Below are positions 1-6,786 of a stretch of DNA of 53,654 nucleotides, in pieces (position 1 is the stretch's first letter; each line of letters starts with the position of its first letter). The DNA is from Bacteroidota bacterium. GTDB lineage: Bacteria; Bacteroidota; Bacteroidia; UKL13-3. The position numbers were made by a program, and so were the translations under genes. The notes under the pieces are model-generated. The model was not told the origin of the DNA, did no database searches, and was given only the letters and a program-made list of their open reading frames with translations. The DNA is taken from assembly GCA_947459075.1 (NCBI GenBank), contig CANHBJ010000002.1, positions 1 to 53,654 of the forward strand, read 5' to 3'.

Positions 1-111
1 CACGCTGTGCCAAGTAAGACAGTTTATACCAATTCTTCACCTGCAAGTGGAGTTCAAAATAGAGATATAGAATATGCGGAAGAAGTTTGGAACTTTTTTA
101 AAGGAATTTAA
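1..111 (+). CDS. 3' end of an unidentified CDS (partial, continues upstream of the window)
   Basis: Frame +1 is open from the window edge to TAA at 109-111 (...DIEYAEEVWNFFKGI*). No start lies in the window. 36 aa is too short to assign a function. Confidence 0.4.
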   Translation, partial: HAVPSKTVYTNSSPASGVQNRDIEYAEEVWNFFKGI

Positions 112-117
112 TAAAAA

Positions 118-255
118 CAGCACACAACAGCGGTTTGGCAAAATGGCGGGTTCAGTGCAAAATTGAACATTTGGTTTTCAAATGAACATTAGTGCTAAAT
201 TGAAAGTAAGTGCTTCTAAATCCGCCACTTCGCCAAGCTGCAAAACGTTAGCGGT
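118..255 (+). repeat. attC-like imperfect palindromic repeat, copy A
   Basis: Left arm GGTTTGGCAAAATGGCGGGTTCAGTGC (132-158) and right arm CCGCCACTTCGCCAAGCTGCAAAACGTTAGCGGT (222-255) are imperfectly complementary to each other. By hand alignment they are ~82-85% identical to the arms of the copy at 1402-1500. The 63-nt centre is not conserved. The repeat starts 7 nt after the upstream stop codon. Confidence 0.7.
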
Positions 256-309
256 CATTGCGACACCCAAACCGACAAAAGATAACAAAACCTCAAGACT
301 ATTTGAAAA

Positions 310-1386
310 ATGAAAAAAATAATATTACTAACGCCAATATTTACTTTCCTGACAATTCTACTTTTGGGGACTGCCTGCAACAGCCCAGTTAAAAAAGACT
401 TACCAAAAGAAAAGGAACTTCCAACTGTTTTTAAAAGCTTGGGGAATTGCAATGTTTCACGTTTTATGAAGGACAAATCAGGTAACCTTTGGTTCGGAAC
501 AACAGATAATGGACTTTATAAGTATGATGGAAAATCGTTTAACCAATTTACAATAAACGATGGACTGGATTGTAATAAAATTTATTGCATCTTGGAAGAT
601 AAAGATGGTAAAATTTGGGTGGGAACTGAAGTGGGACTTTGTCTTTACAATGGAAAGACATTTTCCAAAATCCAGATTCCTTTACCCAAAAATCTGCCTC
701 CAAATAAGAACCCCTACTATCAAACCCATTGGGTGTACAATATGTTACAAGCAAAAGATGGAAAACTATGGTTTGTAACGATTGATGGTGTCTTTATTTA
801 CGATGGCAAATCCTTTACACATTTTCCAATGAATGAAGCCCCCAATGGCTTTTTGACCAGTAACGATAGGGTGGAACGCATATTAGAAGATAATAAAGGA
901 AATATTTGGTTAGGTAGTCGAACCAATGAAGGTGTTTTTCGTTACGATGGAAAATCTGTAACCAACCTCAAACCTATGGATTTGTTTCAAGACGGACCAA
1001 AACCAAAAGCCCATAATTGGGGTTGGCCTCAATTGCAAGACAAAAACGGAAATATTTGGTTCAGTAATTGGGGTGGGGCCTATCGGTTTGATGGAAATAC
1101 ATTTACAAGTTTTACAACAAAAGATGGTTTGCCAAGCGAAGTCACCCGAATTATAGAAGACAAAAAGGGAAATCTTTGGTTTGGTGCTATTGATGGTCTT
1201 AGACGTTACGATGGTAAAACTTTCACCTTTTTTAAAGATGGGCTAATCAATCCTTGGATTTGGGAAATTTTGGAAGATAAAAACGGTAATATTTGGGTGG
1301 GGACTAGAGAAAGTGGTTTATACTTTTTCGATGGAAAAACATTTATTAATTACACAGAATATGAGCATAAGCTTGGAACAGAATAA
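310..1386 (+). CDS. Secreted lipoprotein, 7-bladed beta-propeller built of two-component-regulator-propeller (Reg_prop)-like repeats
   Basis: Lipoprotein signal MKKIILLTPIFTFLTILLLGTAC. Seven repeats of G(N/K)(L/I)W(F/V/L)G..xGlxxYDGKxF, for example GNLWFGTTDNGLYKYDGKSF and GNIWVGTRESGLYFFDGKTF. No kinase or output domain. Confidence 0.8.
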   Translation: MKKIILLTPIFTFLTILLLGTACNSPVKKDLPKEKELPTVFKSLGNCNVSRFMKDKSGNLWFGTTDNGLYKYDGKSFNQFTINDGLDCNKIYCILEDKDGKIWVGTEVGLCLYNGKTFSKIQIPLPKNLPPNKNPYYQTHWVYNMLQAKDGKLWFVTIDGVFIYDGKSFTHFPMNEAPNGFLTSNDRVERILEDNKGNIWLGSRTNEGVFRYDGKSVTNLKPMDLFQDGPKPKAHNWGWPQLQDKNGNIWFSNWGGAYRFDGNTFTSFTTKDGLPSEVTRIIEDKKGNLWFGAIDGLRRYDGKTFTFFKDGLINPWIWEILEDKNGNIWVGTRESGLYFFDGKTFINYTEYEHKLGTE

Positions 1387-1401
1387 CAGAAAAAGCAACG
1401 A

Positions 1402-1500
1402 ACCGCTAACACGGGTTTGGCAAAAGTGGCGTTTCAGTGCTCTGCTGACATATTTGGGGTGAATATCGCCACCTTCGCCAAGCCCGAAAACGTTAGCAGT
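1402..1500 (+). repeat. attC-like imperfect palindromic repeat, copy B
   Basis: ACCGCTAACACGGGTTTGGCAAAAGTGGCGTTTCAGTGC (1402-1440) pairs with CGCCACCTTCGCCAAGCCCGAAAACGTTAGCAGT (1467-1500). The centre is 26 nt. Orientation is the same as copy A. The repeat starts 16 nt after the stop of the propeller gene. Confidence 0.7.
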
Positions 1501-1541
1501 AATGGTAATAAACATTTCGTTTCATTTTATATATTTGTGTT

Positions 1542-1832
1542 ATGACAAGTCTATCTGACATTAAAGAAATACTGAAAAGCCATAAAGTGCAACTTTCTTC
1601 AAAGTATGGATTGAATAATATTGCCATTTTTGGCAGCTATGGTCGTGGACAGCAGACTGCTAACAGTGACGTAGATATTCTTGTAGACTTTAAACAGCCA
1701 ATAGGAGTTGAATTTATCGACTTAGCTGACGAACTCGAAAGAATTCTTAAAATTAAGGTCGACTTAGTTTCAAAAAATGGAGTTAAACCGGACTATCTTA
1801 AATTAATAGAAACCGAACTGAATTATGTCTAA
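1542..1832 (+). CDS. mntA: MNT-family nucleotidyltransferase, type VII antitoxin (MntA-like)
   Basis: GSYGRGQQTANSDVDILVDF matches the GSxxRG...DxD minimal nucleotidyltransferase motif. The protein is 96 aa. Its stop overlaps the start of a DUF86/HEPN reading frame (ATGTCTAA). Confidence 0.85.
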   Translation: MTSLSDIKEILKSHKVQLSSKYGLNNIAIFGSYGRGQQTANSDVDILVDFKQPIGVEFIDLADELERILKIKVDLVSKNGVKPDYLKLIETELNYV

Positions 1833-2166
1833 ACGAGATCCTAAGCTACTTCTGTCAGACATACTCAATTCTGTAGAAAAAATAAAATCCTATACCGAGA
1901 GTCACACATTCGATACATTTATTTAAGACTCAAAAACCCTTGACGCAGTTATTCGGAATTTTGAAATAATTGGCGAGGCAGCCAATAGACTTCCAAAAGA
2001 TTTTAAAGACTCACACGAAAATATTAATTGGTTCAGAATTCGTGGATTCAGGAACCGAATTGTTCATGATTACATGGGTATTGACTTTCAAATTGTATGG
2101 ACAATCATCGATAAGGATCTTGACCAGCTTGCAAGTGACATCACAGCAATTGTTGAGACACTCTGA
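1825..2166 (+). pseudogene. hepT: HepT (DUF86/HEPN) toxin gene interrupted by an in-frame TAA at 1924-1926
   Basis: My own translation from ATG 1825 gives MSKRDPKLLLSDILNSVEKIKSYTESHTFDTFI*DSKTLDAVIRNFEIIGEAANRLPKDF...FRIRGFRNRIVHDYMGIDFQIVWTII...ETL*. The whole reading is a single frame. The HEPN RX4H motif (RNRIVH) is intact downstream of the stop. The 6-frame track misses this gene because both pieces are short or lack a start. Confidence 0.75.
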
Positions 2167-2167
2167 T

Positions 2168-2309
2168 ACCACTAACTATAACTTCTGCCTTGCATCATTG
2201 TCGTTAACCTAAATAAATTTCAGCATTTCATTTCGCATTTATATTTATCTTAGCAACACAATTTAACGTTACATTAGACAACAGCGCCAAGCACCAAAAA
2301 GTTAATCGC
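2168..2309 (+). repeat. attC-like repeat, copy C (degenerate)
   Basis: Begins ACCACTAAC (2168-2176), 2 nt after the hepT stop (compare ACCGCTAAC of copy B). Ends CAGCGCCAAGCACCAAAAAGTTAATCGC (2282-2309), which resembles the right arms CTTCGCCAAGC..AAAACGTTAGC of A and B. A second right-arm-like piece, CTTAGCAACACAATTTAACGTTACA, lies at 2249-2273. Internal complementarity is weaker than in A and B. Confidence 0.45.
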
Positions 2310-2327
2310 ATTATAAATAGTTATCAC

Positions 2328-2545
2328 ATGAAAGTAAAATCAATATTTGTAAGCGTTCCAAAACCAGCACCGTCTTTAACAAGTTGATCAAATTGTAAAA
2401 CTTGCCCTTGAAAACAGTGAAGTAAGATAACAACAAAGTGCAGACCACAGTTGGATGTATTACGATAGTTTTGAAGACCTTGACGGACACCAATGGGAAA
2501 TCATGTATACAAATACCAATCAAATCAAATCAAATCAAATACAAT
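2328..2545 (+). pseudogene. Remnant of a VOC (glyoxalase/bleomycin-resistance fold) family gene
   Basis: An N-terminal-like piece MKVKSIFVSVP starts at ATG 2328. A C-terminal piece in another frame reads VDQIVKLALENSEVR*QQSADHSWMYYDSFEDLDGHQWEIMY, matching the typical ..F.DLDGH.WE.. VOC C-terminus. The locus carries a frameshift, an in-frame TAA and roughly half the expected length. Confidence 0.55.
2521..2540. repeat. (CAAAT)4 pentanucleotide microsatellite
   Basis: Four perfect CAAAT units at 2521-2540, preceded by an imperfect CCAAT unit. The repeat ends 15 nt upstream of ATG 2555. Confidence 0.9.
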
Positions 2546-2554
2546 AATAAAATA

Positions 2555-2968
2555 ATGACACAAGATAAGATAACAGTTGGAGCTACAGTTGTAGGAGACA
2601 AGCAAAAGGTTTGGAACTATTACACTCAACCTGAACACATCACAAAATGGAATTTTGCCGACCCAAGCTGGCATTGTCCTAAAGCAACAAATGATTTAAT
2701 AATTGGTGGACGATATGTAGCAAGAATGGAAGCTAAAGACGGAAGTTTTGGTTTTGACTTTGAAGCTGTTTATACAGACATCCGCCAAGGTGAAGGTTTT
2801 ACCTATGAATTTGGCGGACGACAGGCAACTGTAGAGCTTAAAGAAACAAACGGACAAACAGAAGTAGCCATAACTTTTGACCCAGAAACAGAAAATCCAA
2901 TTGAATTGCAAAGAAACGGCTGGCAAGCAATCTTAGATAATTTTAAAAAATACACAGAGTCAAACTGA
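2555..2968 (+). CDS. SRPBCC / AHSA1 (activator of Hsp90 ATPase homolog-like) domain protein
   Basis: MTQDKITVGATVVGDKQKVWNYYTQPEHITKWNF...DGSFGFDFEAVYTDI...GWQAILDNFKKY is typical of small SRPBCC/AHSA1 proteins. I chose the internal ATG at 2555 because the upstream part of the track ORF reads through the VOC remnant. Confidence 0.75.
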   Translation: MTQDKITVGATVVGDKQKVWNYYTQPEHITKWNFADPSWHCPKATNDLIIGGRYVARMEAKDGSFGFDFEAVYTDIRQGEGFTYEFGGRQATVELKETNGQTEVAITFDPETENPIELQRNGWQAILDNFKKYTESN

Positions 2969-3043
2969 TAGACGTTAGAAAGTTGGCACTTAAATAATTT
3001 TAATACCAAAGATTAGAAAACTTTATTAACAAGAAAAATAAAG

Positions 3044-3081
3044 ACAAAAAAAATCCTGTTGGTATTGCACCAACAGGATTT
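3044..3081. terminator. Hairpin terminator between convergent genes
   Basis: Stem CCTGTTGG (3055-3062) / CCAACAGG (3070-3077) with a 7-nt loop. An A-run lies upstream, which is the U-run for the minus-strand DUF1569 transcript. Confidence 0.6.
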
Positions 3082-3114
3082 CAAGTTTTATATCACCACA
3101 AAAGCAAATAGTAT

Positions 3115-3573
3115 TTAAACACCAAATTGGTTTAAATGGTGATTCAGGTGTTTGTACATCATGTTGTTCCATTCGGTTTTATTTAACACCCCAAACGAAT
3201 GCGATTCTTTCCCTTCAAATGCAGATTCACCCATTTGCTGCACTTGATTGATGTAATTAATTAAGCGCATTTTTTCTTTTTCAAAATCACGTTCGTTGGT
3301 AATTAAAAATTGTGGTGAGGTAGGACCGCCTTGTTTATAAGGCTCCTCTCCTACAACCTTCCCTTTTATAAAAGTCCTAAGTACAAAACGCAATAAAAAA
3401 TTGGGCTTAGCATGTTTGTTATCAAAAATCATTTCGTAAGTAATGCAACAGTGCGCCAACATTTGGCTCACATTCATTTTGCCCCATAGTGCTGGTGTAT
3501 TTATGTTAAGCCTTTTTATTCTGCTTACCATATCTGCACAAACAGGTGCACTAAAAATATTGGGTAATGCCAT
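3115..3573 (-). CDS. DUF1569 (DinB-superfamily-like) protein
   Basis: 152 aa. WGKMNVSQMLAHCCITYEM...HSFGVLNKTEWNNMMYKHLNHHLNQFG resembles DUF1569 proteins common in Bacteroidota. Confidence 0.6.
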   Translation of the reverse strand: MALPNIFSAPVCADMVSRIKRLNINTPALWGKMNVSQMLAHCCITYEMIFDNKHAKPNFLLRFVLRTFIKGKVVGEEPYKQGGPTSPQFLITNERDFEKEKMRLINYINQVQQMGESAFEGKESHSFGVLNKTEWNNMMYKHLNHHLNQFGV

Positions 3574-3580
3574 GCTTAGT

Positions 3581-4462
3581 TTATGCTAAAGATGAAACCA
3601 TGGCTTCTTTATGAATTTTATTAACTAACCCTTGTAATACTTTACCAGGCCCACACTCAATAAACTCGCTGGCACCATCGCTTACCATGGCTTGTACACT
3701 TTGTGTCCATTTTACAGGTGCAGTTAATTGTGCAATTAAATTCGCTTTAATAGCAGCCACATCACGCACAGCACTAGCCGTTACATTTTGGTATACAGCA
3801 CAAATAGGTTCGCTAAAATGTGTTGCATGAATGGCAGCTTCCAATTCAACCCTGGCAGGTTCCATTAATGGAGAGTGAAATGCACCACCTACAGGTAAAA
3901 CCAATGCACGTTTTGCTCCTGCAGCTTTTAATAATTCGCAAGCAATGCTAACACCTTCTATACTTCCAGAAATAACCAATTGGCCCGGGCAATTGTAGTT
4001 AGCAGCAACCACTACTTCATCAGTAATGCTTGCGCAAATTTCTTCTACTTTGGCATCATCCAAACCCAACACAGCGGCCATGGTACTTGGTTTAATTTCG
4101 CAAGCTTTTTGCATCGCTAATGCACGTTTGTAAACCAATGTTAAACCATCTTCAAAACTTAATGTTTTATTGGCTACTAGGGCACTAAATTCACCCAGCG
4201 AATGTCCTGCAACCATATCAGGTGTAAAGGCATCTCCTGCAACCAACGCTTTAATAACCGAGTGTAAAAAAATAGCAGGTTGCGTTACACGTGTTTGTTT
4301 TAATTCTTCATCGGTTCCGCTAAACATAATATCTGTAATGCGGAAGCCTAAAATATCATTGGCTTTTTCAAACAAGGCTTTTGCTTGCTCATTGTTATCG
4401 TATAAATCTTTACCCATGCCCACAAACTGCGAACCTTGTCCAGGAAATAAATATGCTTTCAT
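3581..4462 (-). CDS. fabD: Malonyl-CoA:ACP transacylase
   Basis: MKAYLFPGQGSQFVGMG start, active-site GHSLGEFSAL, and a 293-aa length typical of FabD. Confidence 0.95.
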   Translation of the reverse strand: MKAYLFPGQGSQFVGMGKDLYDNNEQAKALFEKANDILGFRITDIMFSGTDEELKQTRVTQPAIFLHSVIKALVAGDAFTPDMVAGHSLGEFSALVANKTLSFEDGLTLVYKRALAMQKACEIKPSTMAAVLGLDDAKVEEICASITDEVVVAANYNCPGQLVISGSIEGVSIACELLKAAGAKRALVLPVGGAFHSPLMEPARVELEAAIHATHFSEPICAVYQNVTASAVRDVAAIKANLIAQLTAPVKWTQSVQAMVSDGASEFIECGPGKVLQGLVNKIHKEAMVSSLA

Positions 4463-4503
4463 AAAATTGAATTAATTAGTGCTGCAATTAATAAAAGAAT
4501 TGG

Positions 4504-4538
4504 CAAAAAAATAACCTGAGTTGTTCACCTCAGGTTAT
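4504..4538 (-). terminator. Rho-independent terminator of the lipoprotein gene
   Basis: Stem ATAACCTGAG (4511-4520) / CTCAGGTTAT (4529-4538). The A7 run at 4504-4510 gives a U-run on the minus strand. Confidence 0.7.
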
Positions 4539-4563
4539 TGATAATTACAAAAAATATATACTT

Positions 4564-5184
4564 TTAGTTAAATGCTTTAAGTGCTGTTAATGCTTTTGTT
4601 AAATCTATAATGCTAACCGTATGTTTACGTTTACCAATCCAAATATTACAATCTTTAGGTTGTTGGGTTAAACTTTTCTTTTCAAAACTTAATACAACAT
4701 CTGTGGTAATGGCATAATCTATATAGGCAACCTCACCAATAGCTGGCTTTAATGCATTGTAATCATTTTTTAAAGTTGGCCAAACCGACAAGAAAGCCAC
4801 AGCATTAGCGGCTGGTATATGAGTGAAAAATACATTTAAATCACCCATCTGACGAATGAAATCATTACCACGTACACGGCTGTATAAATCAGATACATCA
4901 AAATGATATAAACTGTCTTGTATATAAAATGATTTAGCCACTTTATGTGAACCTAAAACCAAATATTTTTCATTATTTGTTTTGTAGGCAATAAACTCAA
5001 CCTGCGCTTTGTTTGTGCTTTCAAAACCACGAAGCAACAATTTACTTTTTGAAGTGGCCGACTTACCTGCTTCATGCTTTTCTATTACATTTTTTAGATA
5101 GTAATCATACACATTAGTTGTACTCGAGCAAGCGCTAAGTAAAGCGGCTATGGCTATTATTCCAAACTTTGAAATTGCTTTCAT
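4564..5184 (-). CDS. Hypothetical lipoprotein
   Basis: Lipobox signal MKAISKFGIIAIAALLSAC. No family recognised. Confidence 0.7.
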   Translation of the reverse strand: MKAISKFGIIAIAALLSACSSTTNVYDYYLKNVIEKHEAGKSATSKSKLLLRGFESTNKAQVEFIAYKTNNEKYLVLGSHKVAKSFYIQDSLYHFDVSDLYSRVRGNDFIRQMGDLNVFFTHIPAANAVAFLSVWPTLKNDYNALKPAIGEVAYIDYAITTDVVLSFEKKSLTQQPKDCNIWIGKRKHTVSIIDLTKALTALKAFN

Positions 5185-5271
5185 TTAGGTTTATAATTTA
5201 GTTAAAAATCAAATATACGTGTTTTACACTCAAGTACAAGAATGCATAAAAAATAGATTACTGTTATTTGG

Positions 5272-5694
5272 CTATTCACCATAGTATTCCACAAACTGAC
5301 GTTCGGTTTCATACAACTTAATACAGTGCAATTTGCCATCTGTAATATGAGGTGCTAATTGTTCCCATATGGCTACCACCATGTTTTCTATAGAAGCCAT
5401 TTGACCTGTCATAAAATCTACATCATGATTGATATTACGGTGATCAACTTTATCAACTACATAGGTATTGATGATATCGCGTAGCTTTTTAAGATCCATT
5501 ACCATACCCGTATCTGGATTGGCAATACCTTTAATGGTTACATACATATCAAAATTATGCCCATGGTAATATTTGTTGGCACACTTGCCAAAAAAAGCCT
5601 CATTTTCAGCTTCAGACCAATTGGGATTATACAGCTTGTGCGCTGCATTAAAATGCACTTTACGAGTGATATAAACTGTTTTACTTTTTTGCAT
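5272..5694 (-). CDS. queD: 6-carboxy-5,6,7,8-tetrahydropterin synthase (PTPS family)
   Basis: VHFNAAHKL..., CANKYYHGHNF (C...HGH zinc/catalytic motif); 140 aa. Confidence 0.9.
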   Translation of the reverse strand: MQKSKTVYITRKVHFNAAHKLYNPNWSEAENEAFFGKCANKYYHGHNFDMYVTIKGIANPDTGMVMDLKKLRDIINTYVVDKVDHRNINHDVDFMTGQMASIENMVVAIWEQLAPHITDGKLHCIKLYETERQFVEYYGE

Positions 5695-5792
5695 GGTGCC
5701 TTAAAGAGGAGCAAATATACAAACCACTATTAATGATTGAAAAACATTTAAGTTAAAACTGCGAAATACTTAGGTTTTAGGTGTATTATCTT

Positions 5793-5800
5793 TATTTTTG
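5793..5800 (+). promoter_or_regulatory. Candidate Bacteroidota -7 box (TAnnTTTG)
   Basis: TATTTTTG lies 20 nt upstream of the hldD ATG. There is no well-spaced TTTG -33 element, so this is a motif match only. Confidence 0.25.
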
Positions 5801-5820
5801 AGCAAAATACGTATAAATTT

Positions 5821-6786
5821 ATGATAATTATAACGGGAGCGGAAGGGTTTATTGGCAGTTGTTTAGTTGCCGCCTTAAACCATGCTGGATATAACGATTT
5901 AGTTTTAGTTGACGATTTTGGAATGCCCATCAGGGAAGATAATTTAACTGGTAAAACATACACTACAAAAGTAAATCGTGCAGATTTGGGTGCATGGATT
6001 GATGAAAACCATAGTTTAATTCAGTTTATTTTTCATATTGGGGCACGCACAGACACTACCGAAACCAATAATGCCATTTTAAAGGAGCTTAATTTAGATT
6101 ATTCCAAAATGTTGTGGGAAAAATGCGTAGCGTTTGGCTTACCAATTGTTTATGCTTCGTCAGCTGCTACTTATGGTGATGGTGAACATGGCTATGATGA
6201 CGATGAATCCAAATTGGATTTATTGCAACCACTTAATTTATACGGACACTCAAAAAACGACTTTGATAAATGGGCTATTGCACAAGATAAAAAACCATAC
6301 TTCTGGACTGGACTTAAGTTTTTTAATGTGTACGGACCTAATGAATACCATAAAGGAAGAATGGCAAGCGTGGTGCTGCATGCCTTTAATCAAATACATC
6401 AAACAGGAGAAGTAAAATTATTTAAATCGCATAACCCCAACTACCCGGATGGCGGACAGTTACGCGACTTCATATACGTAAAAGATGTTACTGATGTTTG
6501 TTTGTTTCTAATGACCCACAGAAAACATAGTGGTATCTATAATTTAGGCAGTGGCAAGGCACGCACATTTAATAATTTAGTTGAGGCTATTTTTTCAGCT
6601 CTAAATAAAACACCAAACATCTCCTTTATAGATACGCCAATTGATATTAGAGATAAATACCAATATTTTACGGAAGCCAATATGGCCAAACTAAAATCTA
6701 TTGGATATACCACAAATTTCACCAGTATAGAAGAAGGTGTTACTGATTACGTGAAAAACTATTTGATTCCTAACACAAGGATTTAA
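5821..6786 (+). CDS. hldD: ADP-L-glycero-D-manno-heptose 6-epimerase
   Basis: MIIITGAEGFIGS Rossmann motif, YGHSKNDFDK (YxxxK), and overall HldD/RfaD-like sequence; 321 aa. Confidence 0.85.
   Translation: MIIITGAEGFIGSCLVAALNHAGYNDLVLVDDFGMPIREDNLTGKTYTTKVNRADLGAWIDENHSLIQFIFHIGARTDTTETNNAILKELNLDYSKMLWEKCVAFGLPIVYASSAATYGDGEHGYDDDESKLDLLQPLNLYGHSKNDFDKWAIAQDKKPYFWTGLKFFNVYGPNEYHKGRMASVVLHAFNQIHQTGEVKLFKSHNPNYPDGGQLRDFIYVKDVTDVCLFLMTHRKHSGIYNLGSGKARTFNNLVEAIFSALNKTPNISFIDTPIDIRDKYQYFTEANMAKLKSIGYTTNFTSIEEGVTDYVKNYLIPNTRI

Follow-up and report, generated by a model that had tools for sequence, protein, structure and literature searches.

The first 2313 nucleotides of a 53,654-nucleotide stretch of DNA from a Bacteroidota bacterium (lineage UKL13-3; GenBank assembly GCA_947459075.1, contig CANHBJ010000002.1, positions 1 to 53,654 of the forward strand), hereafter called the window, very probably are the distal part of a small array on the chromosome, made up of three gene cassettes which each end in an attC-like site, with an integron-like mechanism. 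The three sites, hereafter called hairpins A, B and C, belong to a family of structured elements found almost exclusively in Bacteroidota, and we are confident that they are recombination sites which bound cassettes. In related genomes such arrays stand beside a tyrosine recombinase without the IntI-specific insertion (I2), and that this recombinase is the enzyme of the sites is concluded from its position with moderate confidence. Because the recombinase lacks the IntI insertion and the sites lack bulged bases, the system is referred to as integron-like and not as a canonical integron.

Hairpins of the window and their family

The hairpins were located with a covariance model (CM), R1, which was trained on 78 elements from other genomes, the window copies being left out. 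Hairpin coordinates refer to the whole window, L-numbers denote related loci or contigs, and bottom strand means the minus strand of the window.

118 to 259, plus strand: hairpin A (CM R1 132.1 bits, E 1e-29); left box CAAC ending at 128, spacer A 129, left stem 130-150, variable centre 151-221, right stem 222-241, spacer AAAAC 242-246, right box GTTAGCG 247-253, putative crossover 247|248
1400 to 1504, plus strand: hairpin B, a short-centre variant (CM R1 82.7 bits, E 1e-17); left box CGCTAAC 1404-1410, spacer A 1411, left stem 1412-1431, right stem 1467-1486, spacer AAAAC 1487-1491, right box GTTAGCA 1492-1498, putative crossover 1492|1493
2172 to 2313, plus strand: hairpin C, a decayed terminal site (CM R1 22.7 bits, E 0.0024 over the window and 0.00027 over 6 kb, full-length alignment); left box TAAC 2179-2182, left stem about 2186-2203, right stem 2277-2293, spacer CCAAAAA 2294-2300, right box GTTAATC 2301-2307, putative crossover 2301|2302

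An earlier reading made from the letters of the window (hereafter the sequence-only reading) had described three copies of one repeat in one orientation, each following the stop codon of a plus-strand open reading frame (ORF), and R1 confirmed them at those places, 6 nt (A), 15 nt (B) and 1 nt (C, after the hepT TGA) beyond the stop. Over the 53.6 kb the next best R1 match after A, B and C had E > 1, and 2314-6000 held no R1 hairpin; the 24-nt right arm and the 18-nt left arm had no other copy in the 53.6 kb (chance expectation 0 and 0.22 matches). The centres of A and B differ in length, as had been described, and their arms, put at about 82-85 % identity by that reading, were measured at 79 % (left, 33 nt) and 84 % (right, 31 nt). 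The outer boxes read CACAAC/GTTAGCG in A, CGCTAAC/GTTAGCA in B and TATAAC/GTTAATC in C; where CTAAC had been proposed as the left part of the outer box, A has CAAC, and R1 puts the left box of C at TAAC 2179-2182, not at CTAAC 2172-2176. The three mismatch positions which had been seen in the inner stem of A and B are real and favour the fold of the minus (bottom) strand, which in B (TAAC..GTTA length about 91 nt) has a predicted DNA folding energy of -25.9 kcal/mol (z -5.4) vs -19.8 (z -2.4) for the top strand. No bulges occur in the predicted folds of A and B, and the mRNA-sense strand folds as RNA at -41 to -42 kcal/mol (z -2.8 to -3.6). Hairpin A is 96 % identical to an element in Flavobacteriales UBA6693 (L048). 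Rfam, which has no attC model, gave no match in the window at gathering thresholds, and the window sequence near the hairpins has no target-site duplications or flanking direct repeats and no T-run after the hairpin.

The family was sought in species-representative genomes with an exact pattern made from its conserved ends, AACAGCA...GCRAAACGTTAG, which gave at least 120 species-level loci, nearly all in Bacteroidota (Flavobacterium, Pedobacter, Kaistella, Chryseobacterium, Cytophagales, Chitinophagales, Saprospiraceae, Bacteroidales and Ignavibacteriales among the hosts). The match length was sharply peaked at 126 nt, and chance matches in other phyla had other lengths and no stem. From TAAC to GTTA the elements measure 126 nt (median; range 109-133). 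In an alignment of 81 copies, dereplicated at 88 % identity (78 copies for some counts), the ends TAAC...GTTA are near-invariant, AAC and GTT being invariant or more than 97 % conserved (78 to 81 copies). Next to the boxes lies an asymmetric internal loop with a left spacer of 1 nt (A in 76/78) and a right spacer of 5 nt (AAAAC or GAAAC), followed by a 20-bp stem, all 20 pairs of which vary on both sides (81 copies), and a variable centre. Among the 81 copies 85.8 % of the cells are paired, vs 29-37 % when the partners are slid by 1-3 columns, and the covariation score is 0.52 vs 0.13 in shuffled alignments, none of 500 of which reached 0.52.

Three stem positions (4/5, 11 and 14) are fixed as non-Watson-Crick, and at position 14 an A stands opposite a C in 74/81 copies, corresponding to G.T on the bottom strand. 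Because of these fixed A.C/G.T positions the bottom strand folds better; it is predicted to be the more stable one in 62/78 copies (means -20.2 vs -17.9, p 1e-8). The two arms are equal in length and therefore leave no bulged extrahelical bases, which in attC sites stand on the bottom strand, set the choice of strand and contact the I2 helix; the family does have the conserved AAC/GTT boxes, the pairing arms with an unpaired spacer, the variable tip and the (predicted) bottom-strand preference of attC. When the full 7-mers were compared with RYYYAAC/GTTRRRY, 5/7 positions matched in 50/77 R'' and 45/78 R' boxes and all 7/7 in 6 R'' and 11 R' boxes. The comparison supports a divergent attC class, most members of which match the consensus boxes at only 5/7 positions, as the sequence-only reading had supposed from its own count of 5-6/7.

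In each locus the hairpins share a single strand, as many as 10 of them within 8 kb (nhmmer and R1), and opposite-strand matches are low-scoring echoes of the same palindrome. The 145 inter-site intervals have a median length of 1014 nt and usually hold one gene; the longest ORF is co-oriented in 127/145, and stop codons lie 12-24 nt ahead of the site. The window itself has three ORF units and three plus-strand sites, and these array data, with the family covariation, bear out the earlier proposal of attC-like, structure-conserved sites bounding co-oriented cassettes (a Reg_prop lipoprotein and MntA/HepT) as well as its placing of the 5' end of the window in the distal part of an array.

Several further features were seen in arrays of other genomes. 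Group II introns lie inside arrays, antisense to the cassettes, at 14.9-17.0 and 18.9-20.9 kb of L142, 3340-3417 of L057 and 15792-17108 of L147 (Rfam RF02001, RF01999, RF00029; ltrA), recalling the group IIC-attC introns which integrons carry. In L140 (Flavobacterium sp. 83) the hairpins are co-oriented with the recombinase and three DDE_Tnp_1 insertion sequence copies interrupt the array. The lone cassette between recombinase and single hairpin in L143 (11175-13469) codes for an anti-phage pair of the PARIS type, AriA/AriB (PADLOC E 2e-38 and 5e-9), so defence systems travel as cassettes here, as has also been reported for Vibrio integrons. Long metagenome contigs (L001, L002, L003, L129) end at or inside hairpins and most recombinase-bearing contigs are 1-5 kb long; the arrays break short-read assemblies in a systematic way and are probably under-represented in metagenome-assembled genomes (MAGs).

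Gene content at the window locus

The genes of the window array and its 3' flank are as follows.

1 to 111, plus strand: 3' end of the cassette-1 ORF (TAA 109-111), which encodes a 328-aa secreted lipoprotein in contigs with the whole cassette
310 to 1386, plus strand: cassette-2 gene for a lipoprotein with two-component-regulator propeller repeats (Pfam Reg_prop E 8e-35; TAA 1384-1386), between hairpins A and B
1542 to 1832, plus strand: cassette-3 gene 1, mntA, MntA-type nucleotidyltransferase antitoxin (Pfam NTP_transf_2, Polbeta; PADLOC PDC-S09 E 5e-26)
1825 to 2166, plus strand: cassette-3 gene 2, the toxin gene hepT (8-nt overlap with mntA; TGA 2164-2166)
2314 to 2968, plus strand: fixed flank beyond hairpin C, with the same gene order in every contig with this end
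about 2338 to 2553, plus strand: glyoxalase/VOC gene remnant with several stops, its translation ending ...FEDLDGHQWEIMY
2555 to 2968, plus strand: intact AHSA1/SRPBCC gene (Pfam AHSA1 E 5e-18)

An all-against-all comparison of 120 species-level loci showed almost no cassettes in common, and since loci of different species are too divergent the mapping of junctions rests on population variants of the window locus. Eight contigs (L127-L134) with the whole of cassette 1, the lipoprotein of which is weakly esterase-like (Pfam Abhydrolase_2), were recovered by a metagenome scan with a 24-nt pattern (window 71-94). Five different hairpins and one AT-rich non-hairpin site adjoin the left end of cassette 1, the homology of which always begins at the GTT of the right box (G|TTGTGTGC; G|TTATGTGC in L130). 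At the other end of the cassette, five different sequences follow hairpin A (window, L127, L130, L131, L132), diverging within a few bases of G|TT.

The same boundary was found for cassette 3. Among the contigs encoding exactly the MntA of the window are three long ones, all ending at or near hairpins, and three short ones, in which mntA-hepT lies behind other hairpins, X (L004, L005) and Y (L006), and at least two other upstream genes. Homology of L004, L005 and L006 to the window resumes at 1488, AAAC|GTTAGCAGTAATGG (AAAC|GTTAG). Altogether, at least seven contexts at the window locus have comparative junctions on G|TT or no more than about 4 nt away from it. A comparison of relatives had been proposed as a check on the cassette reading, and it showed that gene content differs between them and that the repeats form the boundary. 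For the propeller protein of cassette 2 an exact look-up matched no contig.

The 3' end of the array is constant. From mntA-hepT through hairpin C and the glyoxalase remnant to AHSA1 it is the same in all contigs with this end, hairpin C included, which fits an old distal cassette; contigs with the AHSA1 gene all share this one 3' end and have no alternative or empty site, for which TTTATTAAG|TTAATCGC would be the hypothetical sequence. The flank at 2314-2968 represents either old cassettes which have lost their sites or the chromosomal flank, and beyond it lie convergent housekeeping genes (DUF1569, fabD). A pentanucleotide repeat, AATCA/CAAAT in about five copies, was noticed at 2519-2545, at the 3' end of the glyoxalase remnant and just 5' of the AHSA1 start. 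In hepT an in-frame TAA at 1924-1926 inactivates the gene; L005 has CAA there, and with the CAA restored the product matches Pfam HepT-like (E 7e-30). Stop codons in hepT are also present in L004, L006 and L139, the last with further ones, and mntA stays intact. Judged from these sequences, the distal cassette carries a decaying toxin gene.

Upstream, cassette 1 abuts housekeeping genes (acyl-CoA dehydrogenase, cysC, cysD) in L129, a contig whose sequence stops within hairpin A. Should L129 come from the same genome, the array would comprise just three cassettes between those genes and fabD, with no integrase. Taken alone, the window shows an array of three cassettes next to fabD which is probably inactive.

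Recombinases, attI-like sites and plasmid-borne relatives

A tyrosine recombinase gene was found at the 5' (upstream) side of the array in 17/17 loci. It is either divergent, at a distance of 60-900 nt to the first hairpin, or points the same way as the array, and about 1 Mb of array-bearing loci yielded no further tyrosine recombinase. In a blind test five homologues were chosen by protein search alone, with the DNA unseen; four of the five had co-oriented hairpins directly downstream, and none of the five had a hairpin in the 10 kb upstream of the recombinase.

L140, Flavobacterium sp. 83: eight co-oriented hairpins directly downstream
L142, Pedobacter arcticus: four co-oriented hairpins directly downstream
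L143, Sphingobacteriaceae metagenome contig: one co-oriented hairpin directly downstream
L145, assembly GCA_964529175.1: one co-oriented hairpin directly downstream
L144, Bacteroidota MAG: no hairpin directly downstream

The recombinases match TIGR02249 (integron integrase) as first or second profile, the other being the XerA-type NF040815. Scores for TIGR02249 were 158-214 bits vs a cutoff of 265 bits, and the matches run in two stretches which skip profile positions about 180-237. In alignments with VchIntIA (2a3v) query residues 235/237 join chain residues 201/244, so that about 42 residues are missing, exactly at the IntI-specific insertion. XerA/XerC-like structures (5hxy, 4a8e; archaeal XerA) align to the recombinases in one stretch, and the match to Pfam PF00589 is uninterrupted. 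The additional domain of IntI near patch III is said to go back to Messier and Roy in 2001, and the IntegronFinder profile intI_Cterm reportedly corresponds to it. This insertion has been treated as defining and as essential for integron function (PMC9668308; PMC8138268), and recombinases near attC sites which are without the domain have been regarded as not IntI (PMC4889954). By this strict definition the label integron, used in the sequence-only reading, describes the way of working and not the membership, as the array-linked recombinases have no IntI-specific domain and the sites no bulged bases. The recombinase belongs to the Xer/IntI clade and is without the I2 insertion, which fits hairpins without bulged extrahelical bases. 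The 53.6-kb window itself contains no tyrosine recombinase homologue.

Downstream of co-oriented recombinases, 95-105 nt after the stop codon, an attI-like site is present (L140, L142, L143, L144, L145, L036, L042, L063, L095 and also L148 5700-5780), and the first cassette of the array begins there. In it a locus-specific 12-14-nt box occurs three times (direct, inverted, direct), followed by the conserved ...ATATA-N-A|GTTA(G/T). From species to species the boxes covary, and a strong fold is predicted for the inverted repeat (z -3.2 to -6.5); from its sequence the three-box site has the layout expected of a primary attI-type site. No such site is present in the window.

Beside divergent recombinases (L071, L032, L045, L066) the left flank of the first hairpin is conserved, CTACCGAAGGTTTAGT(T/G)CAACAGCA, with CAAC replacing TAAC, and its stem sequences differ between the species. 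This hairpin may be the primary site in that arrangement. The divergent-type genes start with ATG-NNN-ACA-A8-G in five of five species (L071, L032, L045, L066, L054; ATG-ACA-A8-G in L066), and the conserved frame of 300-320 aa continues only in the -1 frame after A8, the 0 frame stopping 5-8 codons on. Since one of the five is an Illumina/MEGAHIT assembly, the shift is not just a nanopore homopolymer error, and it looks like programmed -1 frameshifting or transcriptional slippage controlling recombinase expression. A Flavo-1 RNA (Rfam RF01705, 54 bits) was seen at L140 9841-9915 and L141 1512-1586, where it lies about 85 nt upstream of the recombinase gene and on the other strand. The other recombinases checked did not have it alongside, and, not being a consistent neighbour, it was dropped as a part of the system.

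The family is also present on plasmids. In a Chryseobacterium plasmid (NZ_CP041688) the recombinase is followed by five family hairpins, and in the Riemerella anatipestifer plasmid NZ_CP072192.1 (L146 1112-2430) a full-length hairpin (98 bits) lies 13 nt after the stop codon of tet(X), which is therefore in cassette configuration; IS4351 lies upstream of tet(X) and catB adjoins. On IncC and other Klebsiella and Aeromonas plasmids a 5'-truncated recombinase homologue lies 110 nt upstream of blaVEB-3 (L148 5088-6709, K. michiganensis NZ_CP084417.1). In layout this spacer resembles the attI-like sites, with ...GGGA|GTTAGCGGTAATTTAACC at its end, and no hairpin follows blaVEB-3 on this Klebsiella plasmid. 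R1 furthermore matches the 133-bp veb1 attC of a class 1 integron with blaVEB-1 (41 bits, E 1e-8; L149 4405-4547, K. pneumoniae IncC plasmid NZ_CP031802.1), and does not match the aadB, arr-2 and cmlA5 attC sites of the same integron. The left end of the blaVEB-1 cassette at attI1, G|TTAGCGGTAATTTAACC, is the same as at blaVEB-3, the veb1 cassette thus having one left end, G|TTAGCGGTAATTT, at attI1 and behind the truncated Bacteroidota-type recombinase. The veb1 attC is peculiar in its larger spacer, single extrahelical base (G) and off-consensus inner boxes, and IntI1 recombines it about 50 times less well than the aadB attC (Aubert et al. 2012, PMC3518468). Among the sites which R1 matches, at least one is therefore a functional though inefficient attC, and both platforms share the putative crossover position. 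The shared ends and layout suggest that blaVEB came from such a Bacteroidota array.

Proposed mechanism, alternatives and known systems

The comparisons show the site family with its structure, covariation and polarity, the cassette boundaries at the right-hand box, and the linkage to the recombinase and to an attI-like site; single-strand folding in vivo, the acting enzyme and the strand used are what we infer in the following model. The bottom strand would fold into a short outer R duplex (TAAC/GTTA), an asymmetric internal loop of 5 x 1 nt, a 20-bp L stem with its fixed G.T and mismatch positions, and a variable tip. In this folded state the site would imitate a duplex site of the Xer type, like the hairpin of the CTX phage. 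The tyrosine recombinase would cut at G|TT of the right-hand box and swap the strand with another hairpin or with the primary attI-like site, so that cassettes would be excised and inserted as in an integron. The cassettes of the window would either depend on a recombinase which is encoded elsewhere and acts in trans or now be frozen, the last cassette and hairpin C decaying.

Several observations weigh against this account. Copy C is a degenerate member of the family, with a weak score and a fold no better than that of shuffled sequences (z +1.2 to +1.4), and nhmmer did not detect it. Some breaks in homology lie at the left (R'') end of a hairpin and not at the right (L004 vs L005; L128/L133/L134 vs the window; L034 vs L105), which can be explained if near-identical sites follow different cassettes, as they do within L042. 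Several of the variant contigs are short metagenome assemblies and could be chimeric. In the array of Flavobacterium sp. 83 (L140, 11.0-20.0 kb) small ORFs (64-124 aa) lie antisense to the eight hairpins. The I2-less recombinase is tied to the sites by position, the sites are without bulged extrahelical bases, and the recombinases are without the insertion which is held essential for integrons. The window contains no recombinase homologue and the related contig L129 none within 6 kb upstream, and activity of the locus is for that reason conjectural. The sequence-only reading had placed any integrase upstream of the window; related genomes do have a recombinase upstream of the array, and L129 suggests that perhaps there is none here.

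By R1 the window has three sites and no recombinase in 53.6 kb, and could therefore be taken for an ordinary integron remnant, an attC cluster without an integron integrase (CALIN; defined with the IntegronFinder attC model as at least two attC with no intI within 4 kb), with standard attC sites served by a canonical IntI elsewhere and the Xer-like recombinases of related loci as unrelated passengers. The general attC layout agrees with this, as do the veb1 attC, which occurs in class 1 integrons and is recombined by IntI1, the lack of a recombinase nearby in the window or L129, and the frequency of CALINs in a survey from 2016, 95 % of them without an intI pseudogene nearby (PMC4889954). An unrelated passenger would not be expected 5' of the array in all 17 loci and four of five blind picks, with an attI-like site ending at the same GTTA junction and no second tyrosine recombinase in the array-bearing loci; the poor use of the veb1 attC by IntI1, and the near absence of Bacteroidetes integrons from surveys which require the IntI domain (PMC9024848), also count against this reading, and we consider the remnant unlikely.

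Recombination of the sites as double-stranded DNA of the Xer/dif type, as in the pdif modules of Acinetobacter plasmids, with the palindromy serving protein binding or termination, is less likely again. The recombinases do align end to end with XerA/XerC-like 4a8e and 5hxy, without I2, and the stems are without bulges. In pdif modules the sites alternate in orientation, whereas the sites in an array here are all direct. The covariation of 20 bp across about 100 nt between the arms argues for pairing within a strand, the fixed A.C/G.T positions which favour one strand in most copies would have no role in duplex DNA, and one family member works in the single-strand pathway of IntI1. Almost no weight is given to palindromes without a role in mobility, whether similar to repetitive extragenic palindromic (REP) elements, bacterial interspersed mosaic elements (BIME) or miniature inverted-repeat transposable elements (MITE), or large terminator hairpins. 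Of these, REP elements are accompanied by a RAYT transposase and MITEs by target-site duplications. The position of the hairpins just after stop codons and the good fold of the mRNA-sense RNA would suit such elements. Scatter in mixed orientation, named by the sequence-only reading as the mark of a dispersed repeat, was sought and was absent, with no copies in the other 51 kb of the window or in the 10-kb flanks upstream of recombinases and with polarity never mixed within a locus. Target-site duplications, a T-run and a match to an Rfam family are lacking as well, and gene content changes at the right-hand box. CRISPR, REP, MITE and plain terminator were all rejected on polarity, spacing, absent dispersal and boundary behaviour.

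A cassette array with integron-like recombination thus remains the preferred reading. Integron surveys accept only recombinases with the IntI domain and report integrons to be almost absent from Bacteroidetes (PMC9024848, PMC4889954), in which only In0 elements and one complete integron (Salinibacter) have been described (PMC9024848). The arrays described here suggest that a very common cassette platform of the phylum has been filtered out by definition. No description of an integron-like system with a domain-less recombinase was found for Flavobacteria, Pedobacter or Bacteroidota in the literature covered, the coverage being incomplete and not proof of novelty. A wider proposal, which we regard as evenly balanced between true and false, is that Bacteroidota own a self-contained counterpart of the integron, with an I2-less recombinase, a three-box GTTA site and arrays of bulge-free hairpins of ~126 nt on chromosomes and plasmids, that it is a pre-I2 survivor or an independent invention, and that it is the native source of veb1, and perhaps tet(X), cassettes found later in Proteobacterial elements. 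If an I2-less recombinase does move these hairpins, the arrays would offer a natural test of strand choice and one-strand exchange without the I2 helix and extrahelical bases, and would bear on the proposed Xer-like origin of integrons (PMC4792948). The atypical veb1 attC would then have a concrete origin, and Bacteroidota genes (blaVEB, possibly tet(X)) a route to clinical plasmids.

Among known systems, the repeats of Vibrio cholerae resemble the family in their length of about 123-126 nt, their high similarity within an array and their long L stems, and the arrays are alike in combining many cassettes without known function with toxin-antitoxin pairs. The V. cholerae repeats differ in their bulged extrahelical bases, their 5 x 5 spacers and their I2-bearing integrase VchIntIA (PDB 2a3v). 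The 'inverted' integrons of Treponema and other Spirochaetes have an integrase co-oriented with the cassettes, like L036/L024-type loci, but the IntI domain is present in them. With integron arrays, attC sites and CALINs in general (Cury et al. 2016, PMC4889954) the Bacteroidota arrays share co-oriented ORFs each followed by an imperfect palindrome conserved in structure over sequence, the AAC...GTT triplets, the unpaired spacer, the variable tip, a size within 57-141 nt, the predicted bottom-strand fold, the G|TT boundary, toxin-antitoxin and defence cargo, a recombinase and putative primary site at the 5' end, and antisense group II introns. They differ in the recombinase without the I2 helix, in stems with fixed mismatches or wobbles and not bulges, in the 1 x 5 nt spacer, in a recombinase gene which frequently points the same way as the cassettes and has the putative primary site beyond its stop codon, and in their Bacteroidota hosts.

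The veb1 attC has the same layout, TAAC-A-stem...stem-CAAACC-GTTAGG, as well as the left cassette end and the R1 match already described; it differs in lying in a Proteobacterial class 1 integron, in being moved poorly by IntI1, in being GC-richer (0.57) and in its one extrahelical G (PMC3518468). The closest parallel for the recombination itself is the CTX phage, an integrative mobile element exploiting Xer (IMEX), the bulge-free and duplex-mimicking hairpin of which is recombined by XerCD, also without I2 (Escudero et al. 2016, PMC4792948). Both cases pair a Xer-type recombinase without an I2-like domain with a folded single-stranded hairpin, but the phage borrows the host XerCD, has no dedicated recombinase gene, integrates its whole genome at dif and forms no cassette arrays. 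By analogy, the Bacteroidota system looks like CTX-type chemistry in integron-like use.

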